A stretch of DNA of 6,506 nucleotides from a virus (IMGVR_UViG_2531839233_000013); one strand, 5' to 3'. Positions 1 through 6,478 are shown, numbered from the stretch's first letter. Program-made: numbers and translations. The notes: a model not told the origin generated them from the sequence alone.

Positions 1-26
1 TTACCGGAATTGAAGCAGTTTTTACG

Positions 27-581
27 TCAAAAAGCAATAACTTTTTTCTCTATACCAAAAGCCATAACCATTGGTTTGTACAAAATAAATTCTGCCACCT
101 TTAGCCAATGCTCAATGCGTCTTTCACAGGTTCTTAAACTCCATTCCGGATGTGCATCATTCAGCAATTCAGCCATTTTGCGCTTAGTCATCCCCCGCCC
201 CACATAACGCTGACTCAGAACATTGAGCAGCCCGGGATAACCTGCCAGTACTTCACCAATAACCCTGTCGATTATTAACGCCTCTGAATCGGTACAATGC
301 ACCAGCCAGCTTTTTTGCTTGCCGTTGATCATATCCCGCAAAAAAGCCTCAAGTTTAGGTTTGTCCAGACCTGCTTTTTTCATCCTCCGGAGCGCCTCGT
401 TAATTGCCGTTTTTGTCAGCTTTTTAGAGGTCAGCAACTGGTTGAACATATTTCCCGTCTTACCGCCGCCAATATACGACCAGCGCCCCCACATACGTAG
501 TTTCCCCTGAATCCAGACACTTTCCAGCGTGGTGAGACGAAGGTGCTCTCCGCTTTTTCCTGTGTTCGTTGGGTAAATCAT
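27..581 (-). CDS. Phage late-gene antitermination protein Q-like (quuD / phage-82 type), 184 aa from the preferred start
   Basis: The ORF track gives 224 aa from an ATG at 701, but the in-frame ATG at 579-581 (MIYPTNTG...) overlaps the stop of the upstream gene as ATGA and has AAGGA about 7 nt upstream. The protein has the pattern I recall for DLP12 QuuD-type Q proteins (LRMWGRW, LTSKK, EALRRMKK, LLNVLSQRYVGRGMT) and sits where Q sits in lambdoid nin-Q regions. The stop is TGA at 27-29. Family assignment is from memory. Confidence 0.6.
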   Translation of the reverse strand: MIYPTNTGKSGEHLRLTTLESVWIQGKLRMWGRWSYIGGGKTGNMFNQLLTSKKLTKTAINEALRRMKKAGLDKPKLEAFLRDMINGKQKSWLVHCTDSEALIIDRVIGEVLAGYPGLLNVLSQRYVGRGMTKRKMAELLNDAHPEWSLRTCERRIEHWLKVAEFILYKPMVMAFGIEKKVIAF

Positions 582-868
582 AAATAACCGTCCTTTCTCC
601 AGATCTCTTGTGTGCGAAAAACACCTTCTGCATGCATCAGGCGCAATTCTTCTTTGGTGTAATCGCTGGTTTTTACTCTCCCGTCGATTAAATCGTGGCA
701 TGAGTTACAGGCAATCGCTGCCTGCATATCGTGTGGCTTTATCGCTGTTCCGCACGTTCCCGCCAGCCTGTAATGCGCCAGCACAGAGGTTTCGGGATTG
801 TGATTGCAGTAGCCAGGGATTCTGATCTGGCATATCTGGCCTTTAGCCGCTTTACGTAAATTCACCAT
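578..868 (-). CDS. ybcO: YbcO-like putative nuclease (DUF1364 family), 96 aa
   Basis: The translation MVNLRKAAKGQICQIRIPGYCNHNPETSVLAHYRLAGTCGTAIKPHDMQAAIACNSCHDLIDGR... is nearly colinear with E. coli DLP12 YbcO as I recall it, including the conserved Cys/His cluster. Its ATG at 866-868 overlaps the stop of the upstream gene (TAATG), with GGAG about 10 nt upstream. Confidence 0.8.
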   Translation of the reverse strand: MVNLRKAAKGQICQIRIPGYCNHNPETSVLAHYRLAGTCGTAIKPHDMQAAIACNSCHDLIDGRVKTSDYTKEELRLMHAEGVFRTQEIWRKDGYL

Positions 869-1467
869 TACGCAAACTCCAGTAGTTGTGCGGCCACATT
901 TTCAACTTCCTCCTGAGAGGAGAATTTACGGAACAGAATCCAGTTCCACAGCACATTCAGTACAGATTTATAAACCTGCTGAAACTCGACTTCGTCCATA
1001 TTCGCAAAAGCGATGGATTTTGCCCGACGCCCACGGCTACCGTCCGGATAAATATGCTCGGTGTAAAATCCGGCCTGAATGGTTACCCACTCGCGGAAAG
1101 CCTCAAACGACTTTAGCAACGCCGTATCCCGGGTTCTACGAGTCGCAACGGTGTTAAGGTATTGCTCTGCGGCATCACTCAGGGCTGGCGTGTGTTCCCG
1201 ACCAACTGATTCGCACAGGTAATCAACGAAACCAGACAGCAGTTCTCGTTCGCGAGGCGTGATCGCCCCACCGACCGGAGTCCAGTAATCGAATCCCAGT
1301 TGCAGGAGTTTGAAAAAACGCTTGTGGAATGCGTAGTTACGCACACGCTTAAAATCTGCGTGTATCCACTCACCTATTTTGATTTGATGCAGAAAATCGC
1401 AACTCTCCGGCGTCGCCGGGAGAAGTAAACCAGAAGAAGTTTGTTTGACCAGTTGTATATGCGCCAT
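868..1467 (-). CDS. Phage protein, DUF1367-like, 199 aa
   Basis: A clean 199-aa ORF, translationally coupled to the ybcO-like gene downstream. Its size and its position immediately before DUF1364/YbcO match the DUF1367 proteins of lambdoid prophages. The family name is from memory and has not been verified. Confidence 0.55.
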   Translation of the reverse strand: MAHIQLVKQTSSGLLLPATPESCDFLHQIKIGEWIHADFKRVRNYAFHKRFFKLLQLGFDYWTPVGGAITPRERELLSGFVDYLCESVGREHTPALSDAAEQYLNTVATRRTRDTALLKSFEAFREWVTIQAGFYTEHIYPDGSRGRRAKSIAFANMDEVEFQQVYKSVLNVLWNWILFRKFSSQEEVENVAAQLLEFA

Positions 1468-1886
1468 TTCTCAATCTCTCGATGGCGCAGTGCAGCAGAT
1501 GCCAGTTGTTCAAGCTAGCACGCAAATTGTAAACCAGAATGCCAGGAAAAAACAAAACCCGCCGAAGCTGGTTGTGTGCGGTTGCGTTGAAGTCTCCTAG
1601 CCAAAGAGTAGCGGTGACCACTCCCCGCCGATAATCTTAGTTGTTTAATTTCGTAAGCTAACTAGGCTAAAAGCTCTCTGTTGTCTGCCTGTTGTACAAT
1701 TAACAAAATGAACAACGAACTAGATATACCAACGCCAGAATGGTGCAACAAATCCCAAACAACACAGCAATGCAACAATAACATATGTTATTTTCCTCTC
1801 ACGGGATTCAGTCCTGAATTCTCATAAAGCTAATCTTTTTTTAAAAACATACTGTTAGATCACATGCACTTTCTTTCTTAACATCG

Positions 1887-1914
1887 TTGACTTCGCATGC
1901 GAAGCGTTTAAAAT
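1887..1914 (+). promoter_or_regulatory. Candidate sigma70 promoter for the ATPase operon: -35 TTGACT (1887-1892), 16-nt spacer, -10 TAAAAT (1909-1914)
   Basis: Hexamers are read directly from the sequence, 52 nt upstream of the ATG at 1967; AGAGAG at 1955-1960 is a plausible RBS. A perfect 14-bp palindrome CTTCGCATGCGAAG (1891-1904) overlaps the -35 and spacer. Confidence 0.4.
1891..1904. promoter_or_regulatory. Perfect 14-bp palindrome CTTCGCATGCGAAG, candidate operator in the ATPase-operon promoter
   Basis: The sequence equals its own reverse complement and lies between the -35 and -10 elements. Confidence 0.35.
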
Positions 1915-1966
1915 CAACAATTTGCACTTAAGGTATTTATTTTCCCAAACACATAGAGAGTAAATT

Positions 1967-3358
1967 ATGACTGAGAACACGACTCCAACAGCAGACTTTA
2001 GTCCTAGTAAAAGATTTTTTGTAAGTATGCTAACTCGAGATATCGACTTAAACGATGCCATACTTGATCTGCTTGATAACTGCGTCGATGGGGCTTTACG
2101 TACAATAAAAGACACAAAAAAAACTTCAAAACCATATGAAGGATTTTATGCGAAACTTACGATTAATAAAGATGTCTTTATTATAGAAGACAATTGCGGA
2201 GGTATCCCTAAAAGCTTCCGAGAATATGCTTTTAAAATGGGACGACCCCATCAAAAAGAAGAAGAAAATGAAGGCACCGTTGGCGTCTATGGTATTGGTA
2301 TGAAAAGAGCCATTTTTAAAATGGGTAGAGATTGCTCAATACAATCGAATAATCCCGATGGCGCATTCACTGTAGATATAACACCTGATTGGATCGATGG
2401 TGATGGTTGGAAAATACCGATGCACGAGAGTGACTATGATAACAAAAATCCAACAGGCACAACTATAGAGATAAAAAAACTCCATTCTAATGTGGCACAA
2501 AAATTTAATGAGAGCACATATCTTACTGATCTCTTTTTACAGATAAAACACTCATTGTCATTTATTATTCAAAAAGGATTTAAAATAGAATTAAATGGAG
2601 TTGTTGTTGAACATAATCCGATTAACATCATAACTGATCATTCTAAAATAGAACCATACATATATAAAGCTAAAATAGACGATGTTGATATCGATTTAGT
2701 TGTTGGCTTCTATAAAAATTTAGAAGATGACAATGATGATGTTTTAGAAAAAAGGAGTTCTGATGATGCTGGATGGACTGTCATTTGCAATGACCGCGTT
2801 GTTCTATATTGTGATAAGACACATCTCACAGGTTGGGGCTTTGCTAATGTACCAAGGTTTCATACCCAATTTATAGCAATTTCTGGGGTTGTTCGCTTTA
2901 CCAGTAAAAACCCAGAAAAATTACCAATAACAACAACGAAACGAGGTGTCGATCTTAGTTCTACATTGTACAATGATGTACGAAATAAAATGATTGAAGG
3001 GATGATGCATTTTATTCGATTCACCAATCAGTGGAAAGGTGAGCATCTTGAAGAAGGGAAAAAATTACTTAAGTCAGCTCAGTCACATGAAGCTCAATCT
3101 TTATTTGAAATTACCCCACAATCAACTCCAGAAGATAAAAAAAATAACTGGTCCAACCCTAATAGAAACAAAAATGAGTGGCGATATACACCTAAGCTGC
3201 CTACCCCAGTAAAAAAAAGCTCTACTGTACGAATAATCTTCACCAGAGAGAAAGAAGATGTTAAAATTTTATCTAAATATTTCTTTGGACATGAAGATGC
3301 TAGCGCTTCTGATGTGGGGATGCAATGCTTTGATACGGTGATTGAAGAGGTGAAGTGA
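1967..3358 (+). CDS. GHKL-superfamily ATPase (MutL/MORC/Hsp90-like Bergerat fold), 463 aa
   Basis: All four Bergerat-fold motifs are present in order: N-box D34-L-L-D-N38-C-V-D41-G-A (compare MutL ELVENSLDAGA and MORC ELxDN), G1 box I-E-D75-N-C-G-G79-I (compare MutL DNGCGI), G2 box G106-V-Y-G109-I-G111, and G164-T-T-I-E-I (compare MutL GTTV). The roughly 260 C-terminal residues are unassigned. Stop is TGA at 3356-3358. Confidence 0.8.
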   Translation: MTENTTPTADFSPSKRFFVSMLTRDIDLNDAILDLLDNCVDGALRTIKDTKKTSKPYEGFYAKLTINKDVFIIEDNCGGIPKSFREYAFKMGRPHQKEEENEGTVGVYGIGMKRAIFKMGRDCSIQSNNPDGAFTVDITPDWIDGDGWKIPMHESDYDNKNPTGTTIEIKKLHSNVAQKFNESTYLTDLFLQIKHSLSFIIQKGFKIELNGVVVEHNPINIITDHSKIEPYIYKAKIDDVDIDLVVGFYKNLEDDNDDVLEKRSSDDAGWTVICNDRVVLYCDKTHLTGWGFANVPRFHTQFIAISGVVRFTSKNPEKLPITTTKRGVDLSSTLYNDVRNKMIEGMMHFIRFTNQWKGEHLEEGKKLLKSAQSHEAQSLFEITPQSTPEDKKNNWSNPNRNKNEWRYTPKLPTPVKKSSTVRIIFTREKEDVKILSKYFFGHEDASASDVGMQCFDTVIEEVK

Positions 3359-4347
3359 TGTCTGGACAATACATTCCCTATCACTTAAGGCATAATAAGT
3401 CTATTGATAGAGAGATTTTTCTCGAAAGCCTAAACCTCTTAAGCAAAAGACTAAATATTCAAGAATATACATATATAGGTTTTGGTGGTCCGATGCTTGA
3501 AGATTTTAGAATCATGCATAATCGTATCGCTCTTTCTGATATGATTTCTCTCGAAGAACAAGAGTCTACTCACATCAGACAAAAATATAATTTGCCTTAT
3601 AATTGTATTGATTGTAAGCTAATATCAGCTCATGACTTTATTCTTGATTATAGTTTTTCTAAACCATCAATAACATGGTTAGACTATGCCTCCCCGAAAA
3701 AAATACAAACGGATCTAGATGATATACACTTACTAAGTACTAAAGTAAGCTCTTTTGATATTTTGAAGGTCACCTTCCCCATAAATCCTAGTTCTTATTA
3801 CCAACGTAGAGTTGGAGAAAGTTTAGATATTTTTAAAGAAGCTTTTATTAATTCATTAAAATCATTGCTTGGGAAAAAGTATCTTGATTTTAATCTTCAG
3901 ATATCAAATGCAGATCTTTCAGATCGTAAGATTAAAGCTCTTTTAATACGAATTATTACAAACGCTTTTAGATCAGCAATAGAACGTGGTCTTTCAGGAC
4001 GTAAGGATAAGATTCAGTATTACCCATTATCCTTAAATCAATATAATGATGGCAGTCATACCATGTTGACAATATCAGGTTTTTTCTCCTCAGAACAAGA
4101 ATATATAGAGTTATCTAAGGCATGCGACCTTTCTAACTGGCAATTTTATTCAACAAATTGGGAAGACGTGCAAGAAATAGCAATACCAACACTAACAATT
4201 AAAGAAAAGATAAATTTAGATAGTAAACTGCCTGATAAAGAAGCATATCAGGCAGCCGCTGAAGAGTTCTCTTTAAACGAAAATGAACGGGATAACTATT
4301 ATAAATACTATAGGTTATACCCTAACTTCCAAAGAATTATGGTTTAA
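3358..4347 (+). CDS. Hypothetical protein, 329 aa, translationally coupled partner of the GHKL ATPase
   Basis: A long ORF with the same AT-rich composition as the ATPase gene. The ATG at 3358 overlaps the ATPase stop (TGATG), with a GAGG core at 3347-3350 about 7 nt upstream; the track's GTG at 3355 is an alternative start. No transmembrane stretch and no motif I can assign. Stop is TAA at 4345-4347. Confidence 0.7.
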   Translation: MSGQYIPYHLRHNKSIDREIFLESLNLLSKRLNIQEYTYIGFGGPMLEDFRIMHNRIALSDMISLEEQESTHIRQKYNLPYNCIDCKLISAHDFILDYSFSKPSITWLDYASPKKIQTDLDDIHLLSTKVSSFDILKVTFPINPSSYYQRRVGESLDIFKEAFINSLKSLLGKKYLDFNLQISNADLSDRKIKALLIRIITNAFRSAIERGLSGRKDKIQYYPLSLNQYNDGSHTMLTISGFFSSEQEYIELSKACDLSNWQFYSTNWEDVQEIAIPTLTIKEKINLDSKLPDKEAYQAAAEEFSLNENERDNYYKYYRLYPNFQRIMV

Positions 4348-5466
4348 ATATTCGGGCTGTACTCTTTTATTTAATAAATTGTACAGCCCCTTTAATATAT
4401 ATTCAGCAACTATTGGTGACACGCTATTTCCTATTTGTCTGAAACTATGCCATTTAGTTACATGAAAGCGAAACCAATCAGGGAAGCCTTGTAATCTAGC
4501 AGCTTCTCTTGGTGTAATCACTCTTGGATGATAAGGGTGGATCGGCCTGACGGCTTGAAAGCTTCCTTTATCTCTAGCGGTTCCCGCCCTTAAAGTCGGG
4601 CAAAAACCATTTGGATCTAATCTTGTAGATCTTGAAATTTTATCAGTTTCCCCAAAAGATAAGGAAGCATAACGCTCTTGGACGATTTTGCTATGTAATG
4701 TTCCGGTACATCCAGATATGATATTATTTTTTAACTTAGCGATCGATTCTGTATCACCAACATTCCGAGGGATCTGCCCCCATAATTTTTCATAAAATCC
4801 CCCTTTTCGATCTTTTTTAATTGTTCGCCAACTCTCAGAGTCTGATTGCCAATTGGCATCGATAATATCTGGTAATCCATACAAAGCATCTTTTACAGTA
4901 ACCGGATCAATCATTTTAGGCATAAATACTTCATCTGAAATATCAAGCTTCAATGATTTTTTTACACCGATAAAAAAATATCTAGTTCGAATAGTTGGAG
5001 CACCATAATCAGATGCTTTTACCTTGATGGGATCAAGAATATCATAATCACCGCTAACCAAATTAAATGCTTTATTTCTAATGCCAGAATATTTCTCTTG
5101 CATAATACCTGGAACATTTTCTGCCAAAAAGAATAATGGCTGTAATTCTGATACTAAACGGTAGAAATGCATGTAAAGCTGATTCCTGCTATCATCAGGA
5201 TTCCCCTTGCCTATTGAACTAAATCCTTGGCACGGAGGACCGCCAATAATACCATCTATGGGCATATCGTTTTTAAAAAAACCCTTAATTATTTCTGCAT
5301 TTAGTAAAGAAACATCTTCTTGGACGTGCAAACTTCTTGGAAAATTAATTGCGTGAGTATTAATAGCATGTTGATCAATTTCAACTGCCATTTTAACATC
5401 AAATCCAGCACGTGCAGCACCAAGACTTAGACCTCCAACGCCAGAAAACAAATCTATTACATTCAT
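4315..5466 (-). CDS. DNA (cytosine-5)-methyltransferase, Dcm-type, 383 aa
   Basis: Canonical C5-MTase motifs: motif I D-L-F7-S-G-V-G-G12 (AdoMet binding), motif IV G-G-P-P78-C79-Q-G-F-S (catalytic Cys), motif VI F-F-L-A-E116-N-V, motif VIII P-T-I-R-T-R-Y-F-F-I-G, motif X R-Q-I-G-N-S-V-S-P. The variable target-recognition region lies between VIII and IX. Confidence 0.92.
   Translation of the reverse strand: MNVIDLFSGVGGLSLGAARAGFDVKMAVEIDQHAINTHAINFPRSLHVQEDVSLLNAEIIKGFFKNDMPIDGIIGGPPCQGFSSIGKGNPDDSRNQLYMHFYRLVSELQPLFFLAENVPGIMQEKYSGIRNKAFNLVSGDYDILDPIKVKASDYGAPTIRTRYFFIGVKKSLKLDISDEVFMPKMIDPVTVKDALYGLPDIIDANWQSDSESWRTIKKDRKGGFYEKLWGQIPRNVGDTESIAKLKNNIISGCTGTLHSKIVQERYASLSFGETDKISRSTRLDPNGFCPTLRAGTARDKGSFQAVRPIHPYHPRVITPREAARLQGFPDWFRFHVTKWHSFRQIGNSVSPIVAEYILKGLYNLLNKRVQPEYLNHNSLEVRV
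4354..4400 (+). terminator. Candidate intrinsic terminator for the ATPase-partner operon
   Basis: A perfect 9-bp inverted repeat GGGCTGTAC (4354-4362) / GTACAGCCC (4381-4389) with an 18-nt AT-rich loop, followed by CTTTAATATAT. It starts 7 nt after the partner stop and lies inside the 3' coding end of the convergent methyltransferase gene. The loop is longer than in a textbook terminator. Confidence 0.35.
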
Positions 5467-5498
5467 ATAGTTGCAACGTCTCTTATTAGTTTCTATGT

Positions 5499-5528
5499 AT
5501 TATAACACAACTGTTCTTGATGTTTTAA
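5499..5528 (-). promoter_or_regulatory. Candidate promoter for the methyltransferase with extended -10 (TGTTATAAT on the minus strand)
   Basis: Plus-strand ATTATAACA at 5499-5507 reads TGTTATAAT on the minus strand, about 33 nt upstream of the ATG at 5466. The -35 is weak (best TTAAAA-like), which is usual for extended -10 promoters. Confidence 0.4.
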
Positions 5529-5728
5529 CCCCATAAGATAACCTCATAAAGGCTATCCCTTGAAAATACCGGATCGCATAAATTTAATCTTTCAAAACTA
5601 CTTGTCTATTAATCGAGCAATTTAAGGTTGTTTTAGTCATGTCGATACCGACATAGTTAACTAAACCCATTTCATCGTCCAACAAATGGGGGTAATACAC
5701 TTTGATTTATAGTCGGGTGGGTTTTTCT

Positions 5729-5764
5729 CTATCTGCCTTTGGTGTTCATGCCCAAGGCAGATAG
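5729..5764. repeat. Near-perfect 13-bp inverted repeat CTATCTGCCTT(T)GG ... CC(C)AAGGCAGATAG with a ~9-nt spacer, at the right island/backbone transition
   Basis: Read directly from the sequence. No U-tract follows on either strand, so it is not a typical intrinsic terminator. Confidence 0.5.
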
Positions 5765-5897
5765 CCTCAAGCACCCGCAGCAATTCTACTTAACTATCCT
5801 TTTCCCGCAAACCGTTTTTATCCCCAGCGGCAAATCGAATACACAACCAGCACCACCGCCATTACTGTTCCTACATTTGCGAATGCTTCAGGCCAGG

Positions 5898-6293
5898 TCA
5901 TTGATTCACCTTCTGCTCAATATTTTTAAGGTCATTTTCCGCATACAGTATTGCAGTTCTTGCTGCCCGCAACCGTGCTTTGGTGTTCTTTTCTTCACGC
6001 TCGAGGCTGGCAACAGATTCTCGGAGCTGATCGTGTCTGTTATGAAGCTGTCTAATCTCTCTCACCACAGCCTCACCATCGTTCGCACACCGCAGAACAT
6101 ACTGAAAAGGGTCCACAACACATCCGCACTGCAAGCACAGGATAACGTGATCCTGTTCATGAACCTCAATGGCCCGATGCTTACAGCTCTGTTGTGTGTA
6201 GTTTTTTCTGCCAGTTACTGTAATGTTCAGCAGCTTCTCTTCATCGCGCTTTGGCTGCACCAGTGTGATGATATTATCGCCTTCATTTTCCAT
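5898..6293 (-). CDS. Phage hypothetical protein, 131 aa, with a Cys/His cluster and a charged C-terminal helix
   Basis: The ATG at 6291-6293 has a strong RBS (AGGAGGT about 7 nt upstream) and overlaps the upstream stop as ATGA; the track's longer 156-aa start at 6368 lacks this support. The sequence contains CKHRAIEVHEQDHVILCLQCGC and an R/E/K-rich tail. Backbone-like G+C. Confidence 0.55.
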   Translation of the reverse strand: MENEGDNIITLVQPKRDEEKLLNITVTGRKNYTQQSCKHRAIEVHEQDHVILCLQCGCVVDPFQYVLRCANDGEAVVREIRQLHNRHDQLRESVASLEREEKNTKARLRAARTAILYAENDLKNIEQKVNQ

Positions 6294-6478
6294 CAGTTCA
6301 CCTCCTGCGGCGGTTCTGGTAGCGGCATCCAGTGTGACGGTTTCCACGACGCACCAGGAATTATCCACCCATCATTAGCGTCAGGATGCCCCGGGATGTA
6401 AGTCGCCCACTTCATTCGCCAGTCACCTTTCCTGTCAAACTCCACGGCAACAAGAACGGCTGTTTTGGTATCCGGCAT
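6293..6478 (-). CDS. Phage hypothetical protein, at least 61 aa, possibly 5'-incomplete
   Basis: The ORF is translationally coupled to the downstream gene (ATGA at 6293). The reading frame stays open upstream of the ATG at 6478 to the window edge at 6506, so the true start may lie outside the window. Confidence 0.45.
   Translation of the reverse strand: MPDTKTAVLVAVEFDRKGDWRMKWATYIPGHPDANDGWIIPGASWKPSHWMPLPEPPQEVN

Follow-up and report, generated by a model that had tools for sequence, protein, structure and literature searches.

The cassette and its prophage setting

The DNA analysed here (the window, a stretch of 6,506 nucleotides) comes from an E. coli lambdoid prophage: its positions 1-5901 are a 99.8% match to prophage Sp10 of the O157:H7 strain Sakai. 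At least 80% of the window is present in about 172 complete genomes of E. coli, including O157:H7 and O111 strains. The flanking phage genes are all encoded on the minus strand (Table 1). Between them, within the nin region, lies an AT-rich island (GC 0.30-0.37 vs about 0.49 in the flanks), whose ATPase operon runs in the opposite direction and converges on the gene of a cytosine methylase.

Table 1. Features of the window, and promoter spacers of the eight cassette variants
Feature	Position	Strand	Basis and remarks
Q-like antiterminator	27-701	-	
YbcO	578-868	-	
DUF1367	868-1467	-	
hok-type toxin gene remnant, frameshifted, with 3' UTR	1555-1784	-	85.5% identical to the Hok/Gef locus of L002
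Conserved cassette block	1882-5528		blastn against L117, 78.7%; two inward-facing promoters at its ends
-35 hexamer TTGACT	1887-1892	+	Consensus scan; TTGAC invariant in 8 cassette variants
-10 hexamer TAAAAT	1909-1914	+	Consensus scan; TAnnAT and CA invariant in the alignment; CA at 1915-1916
Shine-Dalgarno-like GAGAG	1956-1960	+	Read from the sequence; 6 nt before the ATG; purine-rich block conserved in relatives
GHKL (HATPase_c_3) ATPase, 463 aa, first operon gene	1967-3358	+	Pfam PF13589; AlphaFold model
PF20553 protein (Methyltransf_35, "putative O-methyltransferase")	3358-4347	+	Pfam, E = 2e-89; RefSeq coordinates
Dcm-type C5 cytosine DNA methyltransferase	4315-5466	-	Pfam PF00145; convergent with the ATPase operon
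Hairpin GGGCTGTAC...GTACAGCCC	4354-4389		Inverted repeat; directly after the operon stop codon, within the 3' end of dcm
dcm promoter, extended -10 type, TTAAAA-18-TATAAT with TG, TGTGTTATAAT	5499-5528	-	Consensus scan and conservation
hok/sok-type leader	5652-5776	-	Rfam RF01794, 50.2 bits, below the gathering score of 59; E = 1.7e-10
156-aa phage ORF	5898-6368	-	
DUF551	6293-6478	-	
Spacer, window			TCGCATGCGAAGCGTT
Spacer, L083			TCCCTATCGAAGCGCT
Spacer, L084			TCACATTGCAAGTGCA
Spacer, L171			TCATCCTTCAAGTGCA
Spacer, L085			TAGCTGGTGAAGCATT
Spacer, L170			ATCAATCAGAAGTGCT
Spacer, L173			TACTTTTATCAATATC
Spacer, L086			TGTATTTTGCAATCAT

The AlphaFold model of the ATPase (pLDDT 84) matches the ATPase modules of Hsp90/TRAP1, SMCHD1, MORC2/3, and topo IV over about 400 columns; the modelled structure combines a GHKL domain with an S5-like transducer module, and no sequence-specific DNA-binding domain is recognisable in it. 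The second gene of the operon, whose start overlaps the ATPase stop codon, encodes the PF20553 protein. PADLOC found no match for either of these two proteins, HMM profile searches of the PDB with both returned no sequence relatives, and no nuclease or helicase is recognisable among the cassette genes by sequence search (Pfam, PADLOC, PDB).

The methylase, Dcm, aligns with PDB 3g7u over almost its whole length (residues 1-367 of 383, E 1e-254, 847 bits). Its Pfam DNA_methylase match covers residues 1-361, and the alignment to 3g7u begins at query residue 1 and 3g7u residue 3; since the Pfam match starts at residue 1, Dcm has no N-terminal HTH or other DNA-binding extension. The PDB entry gives a generic molecule name only, and a literature search found no paper mentioning 3g7u. 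The same search returned no specificity or function for 3G7U, ECs1953, or PF20553/Methyltransf_35, and none from the O157 methylomes. The candidate dcm promoter has a weak -35 box (TTAAAA), and its relatives keep TGnTAnAAT or TGnTAAACT at the extended -10 element.

At their 3' ends, from 4315 onward, the ATPase/PF20553 operon and dcm have 33 bp in common. The hairpin at 4354-4389, the only good one after the operon, falls within the last dcm codons and is probably a terminator; transcriptional interference or shared termination of the two convergent units is possible. The block conserved in blastn begins at 1882, 5 bp before the -35 box of the ATPase operon, and ends at 5528, the upstream edge of the dcm promoter; other relatives match the window from 1947 or 1985 to 5472 or 5518. 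Prophage morons are accessory cassettes of lambdoid prophages that bring a promoter and a terminator of their own. The present cassette resembles them in being AT-rich, in lying between nin-region genes, in having a near-consensus promoter to itself and a hairpin downstream of the operon, and in having an operon that runs opposite to the flanking phage genes; unlike them, it has an inward-facing promoter at each end (1887-1914 and 5528-5499) and consists of convergent units with overlapping 3' ends.

From the sequences at its two borders, the island appears to have entered a type I toxin-antitoxin locus of the hok/sok type. Both ends of an intact hokD-type locus (L175, 2147-2605) have a match in the window. 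At the left flank, comparison with the Hok protein of L002 revealed no intact Hok/Gef reading frame: the frame of the Hok-like peptide (…CCTILALVYLVRCSFC*) is without a start codon and stops early. A 9-mer common to the L002 Hok start region, CTTCGCATG, was considered as a displaced hok start and rejected as a chance match, because no similarity extends past it. In L002, another E. coli prophage, a different moron (two hypothetical genes and an S8 peptidase gene) lies beside the same hok, and insertions may recur in the hok neighbourhood. Immediately upstream of the hok leader lies an unannotated 27-codon ORF (5818-5901, minus strand) for a hydrophobic peptide, MTWPEAFANVGTVMAVVLVVYSICRWG; it and the 156-aa phage ORF overlap at the end of the latter. 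Rfam returned nothing credible in the interval 1450-2050.

The promoter of the ATPase operon and its palindrome

The sequence TTGACT-16-TAAAAT upstream of the ATPase gene has 10 of 12 matches to the sigma-70 consensus, with a 16-bp spacer. It is one of four promoter-like sites of this score in the interval 1400-5800, and the only one of them that precedes the ATPase gene. Promoter-like sites as a class are at chance level in the scanned region (19 found vs 16.2 expected), and we credit the promoter for its conservation across variants and not for its consensus match. Within E. coli there is little variation to use: 173 genomes carry most of the palindrome/promoter stretch, all at 99% identity or more there, so that selection within the species cannot be judged, and the single E. 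coli variant checked (1 mismatch in a 461-bp query) has an identical promoter and palindrome. The E. coli stretch being invariant, contigs encoding more distant ATPase homologues (57-87% identity) were compared.

Eight distinct variants of the cassette (the window, L170, L083/L117, L171, L084/L172, L085, L173, and L086; ATPases 75-87% identical) were obtained in this way. All eight keep TTGAC, a spacer of 16 bp, TAnnAT, and the adjacent CA. The distance from the start of the -35 box to the ATG is 71-82 nt in the seven scanned variants and comparable in L086, which was read separately; the intergenic DNA around the promoter is unalignable between variants. The ATPase-operon promoter proposed in the first-pass annotation thus has a clear phylogenetic footprint, and its identification at 1887-1914 as a genuine sigma-70 promoter is well supported by this comparison. 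Transcription would start near 1921, given the usual spacing, and the promoter is probably constitutive. Sequences resembling canonical LexA boxes occur about 280 nt upstream of the ATPase gene in three relatives from other prophages (CTGTATATATAAACAG in L083, ~3720-3740; CTGTATGTATGAACAG in L084, ~3710-3730; CTGTATTTATATACAG in L085, ~3705-3725) and probably belong to the neighbouring phage gene; CTGT-N8-ACAG is absent from the window.

A perfect 14-bp palindrome, CTTCGCATGCGAAG, occupies positions 1891-1904, as the first-pass annotation had reported. Its overlap with the -35 box and spacer of the promoter, claimed there as well, holds in detail: the palindrome covers the last 2 bases of TTGACT and the first 12 of the 16 spacer bases. 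As for the methylation-target cores that it was said to include, GCATGC indeed forms its centre (1895-1900), and the description "GCGC-like" is loose, GCGC being absent from 1891-1904.

The chance level of such a feature was estimated with 2000 dinucleotide-preserving shuffles of the window. Perfect palindromes of at least 14 bp are expected 0.56 times per shuffled window, with P = 0.43 for one or more, and two are observed; with the search restricted post hoc to the 182-bp intergenic region, P is 0.018. A general dyad statistic scores the best inverted repeat (gap 0-8) among the 140 bp that precede the ATPase gene; its p value for the window is 0.12. By these single-sequence statistics the palindrome exceeds chance only weakly, and neither the palindrome nor the promoter is persuasive from the window sequence alone. 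A role as terminator or attenuator was considered and discarded: the stem is 5-6 bp, neither strand has a T-run, the palindrome lies upstream of the inferred start site, and single-stranded folding of the region is no better than that of shuffles (z = -0.59).

The other of the two palindromes is longer (16 bp), perfect, and AT-rich. This sequence, AATAACATATGTTATT (1777-1792), spans the ATG of a degenerate ORF in the hok frame; it falls outside the conserved cassette block, with about 95 bp between it and the downstream -35 box. For a single 182-bp spacer, two perfect palindromes of at least 14 bp are an unusual number; for the whole window, P for two or more is 0.11.

The spacers of the orthologous promoters are given in Table 1. 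The palindrome is confined to the E. coli allele among the eight cassette variants and was found in none of the seven orthologous promoters. At its register the window has 7 of 7 complementary pairs, and the relatives have 2, 4, 4, 4, 4, 1, and 1 of 7; their sum, 20 of 49, is equalled or beaten at control registers of the same alignment (22, 20, 19), and the dyad is neither conserved nor symmetric beyond those registers. The GCATGC centre, which only the E. coli allele carries, is the most variable part of the spacer across the variants, and four of the five spacer differences between the window and L083, the most similar promoter, fall within it. Conservation is greater at the outer positions: CTT...AAG is kept in three relatives (L084, L171, and L085), the right-arm AAG in five of seven, and the full GAAG in three (L083, L085, and L170). 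The CT of the outer arm is itself part of the -35 hexamer. The semi-conserved block AAG(C/T)(G/A) beside the -10 box runs past the palindrome, and the left side lacks a mirror image of it; the block may reflect common descent or spacer contacts. The variants share ancestry, and therefore their common bases are not independent.

The general dyad statistic singles out only L085 among the close relatives (p = 0.02), for an unrelated repeat downstream of the -10 box. Among 37 distant convergent loci, five have an upstream dyad with p < 0.05; an enrichment is not clear, because three of these five carry one same repeat.

Because the related promoters keep the promoter signals and not the palindrome, the latter is most likely a coincidence, and we regard it as probably fortuitous, in an ordinary sigma-70 promoter of a moron cassette. 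The sigma-70 promoter at 1887-1914 would drive the two-gene operon (GHKL ATPase and PF20553) rightwards to the hairpin at 4354-4389, and dcm would be transcribed convergently from its own extended -10 promoter. The palindrome may have arisen as a by-product of drift in the weakly constrained spacer of the E. coli allele, its outer arms being supplied by the CT that closes the -35 box and by the semi-conserved AAG; no dedicated protein or methylation switch would be needed.

Possible control by a repressor, methylation, or autoregulation

The first-pass annotation suggested that the palindrome might serve a dimeric repressor or, alternatively, contain the methyltransferase target. In the former case a host or prophage protein encoded outside the cassette would bind CTTCGC-AT-GCGAAG in the E. 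coli allele and exclude RNA polymerase from the -35 box and spacer, so that the ATPase operon stays low until a signal arrives. A perfect dyad over the -35 box and spacer is the classic geometry for occlusion, the palindrome is locally improbable (as the intergenic P value indicates), and such sites can be lineage-specific. The cassette also has no regulator of its own: the remark of the first-pass annotation that no small HTH gene is visible in the island was borne out, since none of the small ORFs matches a Pfam family and conservation is limited to three genes; nor is there any ORF between the promoter and the ATPase ATG. However, the site is missing from every orthologous promoter, with its centre the least conserved part of the spacer. 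No other site with at most 3 mismatches was found in 17.9 kb of prophage Sp10, a scan that takes in the cI/cro immunity region and the replication and late regulatory regions, and no palindrome resembling 1891-1904 is present in the dcm promoter of the window or its relatives. The exact 14-mer occurs in 72 IMG/VR contigs, once per contig and clustered in none; 11 of these are this prophage, and the scattered remainder is consistent with chance. To our knowledge, no E. coli regulator has such a consensus. An operator is, on balance, unlikely, and the claim of one is not supported.

C-protein R-M systems have paired C-boxes, unlike the single 14-bp dyad here. Among the type II R-M systems controlled by C-proteins through C-boxes (AhdI, PvuII, and Kpn2I; PMC2275141, PMC2175313, PMC6237814), AhdI resembles the present locus: its units are convergent, and control acts through an inverted repeat close to the promoter that serves the "restriction" unit. 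In contrast to these systems, the island has neither a C gene (there is no small HTH ORF) nor a recognisable endonuclease gene.

It is quite improbable, in our estimate, that the palindrome holds the recognition site of Dcm itself (for instance GCATGC or a longer sequence), such that 5-methylcytosine alters promoter strength and the ATPase operon senses the modification state of the genome in the manner of CfrBI. The layout is R-M-like, with a C5 methylase paired with a convergent operon, and the cytosines lie in a symmetric core of 6-8 bp. Control by promoter methylation is documented for CfrBI, where, according to bioRxiv 10.64898/2025.12.04.692298 and PMC3874152 (ref. 174), a single recognition site lies in a promoter region shared by divergent genes and its methylation tunes expression. 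The present locus is similar in having a short C-containing palindrome in a core promoter of methylase-linked genes. It differs in that its genes are convergent with separate promoters, and in that the site is missing from all orthologous promoters of the cassette.

The orthologous methylases are colinear and homologous in their target-recognition regions: the two most variable 40-column blocks (about residues 190-270) are 45-71% identical to the window protein, the next 40-column block is 51-82% identical, and the motifs SGCxGTxHS and DKISRSTRLDPxGFCPTLRAGT are common to them. No GCATGC or other short C-containing palindrome is common to the eight ATPase promoters, whose invariant bases are TTGAC and TAnnATCA, and the dcm promoter has no such site. 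If the methylases share a target, a methylation site is not a conserved feature, because no short site is common to the orthologous promoters; if their specificities differ, an allele-specific site in the E. coli promoter is possible. Moreover, 68 of 130 distant loci have dcm directly before the ATPase gene and in the same orientation. This co-directional order suggests a single operon, and a separate ATPase promoter may therefore not be a family-wide feature.

Binding by the methylase, as distinct from methylation, has its own precedent. SsoII-type methylases use an N-terminal DNA-binding extension; unlike them, Dcm has a Pfam methylase domain that begins at residue 1, and the dyad is not in the dcm promoter. 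What the locus shares with SsoII, EcoRII, and MspI, as they are presented in PMC3874152 (refs 169-173), is that a C5 methylase occurs together with an inverted repeat in one of the promoters; in those cases the methylase itself is described as binding the repeat in its own promoter region. We consider it very improbable that the spacer of the E. coli allele has recently gained a site recognised by the cassette's C5 methylase or by a host repressor, which would turn the promoter into a methylation- or repressor-gated switch.

Least probable of all is a conserved autoregulation in which the ATPase dimer or the PF20553 protein would bind a degenerate dyad, CTTC-N6-GAAG, of which E. coli would carry the most perfect version: the outer bases retained in part of the relatives, one invariant spacer A, and the ability of MORC-type GHKL ATPases to dimerise and bind DNA (PDB 9cdh, "MORC2 ... 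with DNA", is among the fold matches) speak for it, but the left arm is largely the -35 hexamer, the relatives' symmetry score is unexceptional among registers, the most distant variants (L173 and L086) pair at 1 of 7, bases shared by descent do not count as independent, and the ATPase model is without an identified domain for sequence-specific DNA binding.

Distribution and significance of the trio

The three-gene cassette is also found in other prophage backbones and in chromosomes, and all three proteins diverge in parallel. The combination Dcm-GHKL-PF20553 is present at 437 confirmed loci among GTDB species representatives from many phyla; of 130 loci checked, 119 have all three genes with Dcm adjacent, 68 of them co-directional and 51 convergent. 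These relatives are distant (at most 47% identity) and were used for gene order, being unsuited to promoter alignment. At the DNA level, the phage and plasmid collections contained no relatives of the island except a 176-bp conserved dcm motif, and a metagenome scan yielded identical copies only. A locus of Serratia marcescens (L088, 6672-9398) has a different architecture with the same theme: the ATPase-PF20553 pair is followed by a longer second HATPase_c_3 protein of 608 aa and by a more distant Dcm, 46% identical.

Association of paraMORC/MORC GHKL ATPases with DNA methylases in predicted R-M systems was described by Iyer, Abhiman and Aravind (2008, PMC2292703), whose neighbourhoods usually include helicases and/or endonucleases. 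Similarly, in the present trio an ATPase of GHKL-plus-transducer type adjoins a cytosine methylase and is sporadically distributed across phyla; in contrast, the trio has the methyltransferase-like PF20553 protein, and no nuclease or helicase was detected in it by sequence.

This analysis pins down the predicted ATPase-operon promoter and the predicted extended -10 promoter of dcm in the cassette of E. coli O157:H7/O111 prophages, and removes the tempting annotation of an operator as unsupported. The cassette is of more interest than its palindrome: the Dcm-GHKL-PF20553 trio occurs in hundreds of species with no assigned function, and its role appears to be undescribed. If the palindrome were functional, it would be an allele-specific add-on, outside the conserved design of the system. 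Should a methylation- or repressor-gated switch nevertheless prove true, the palindrome would be the first experimental handle on the restraint of a widespread, uncharacterised three-gene system.
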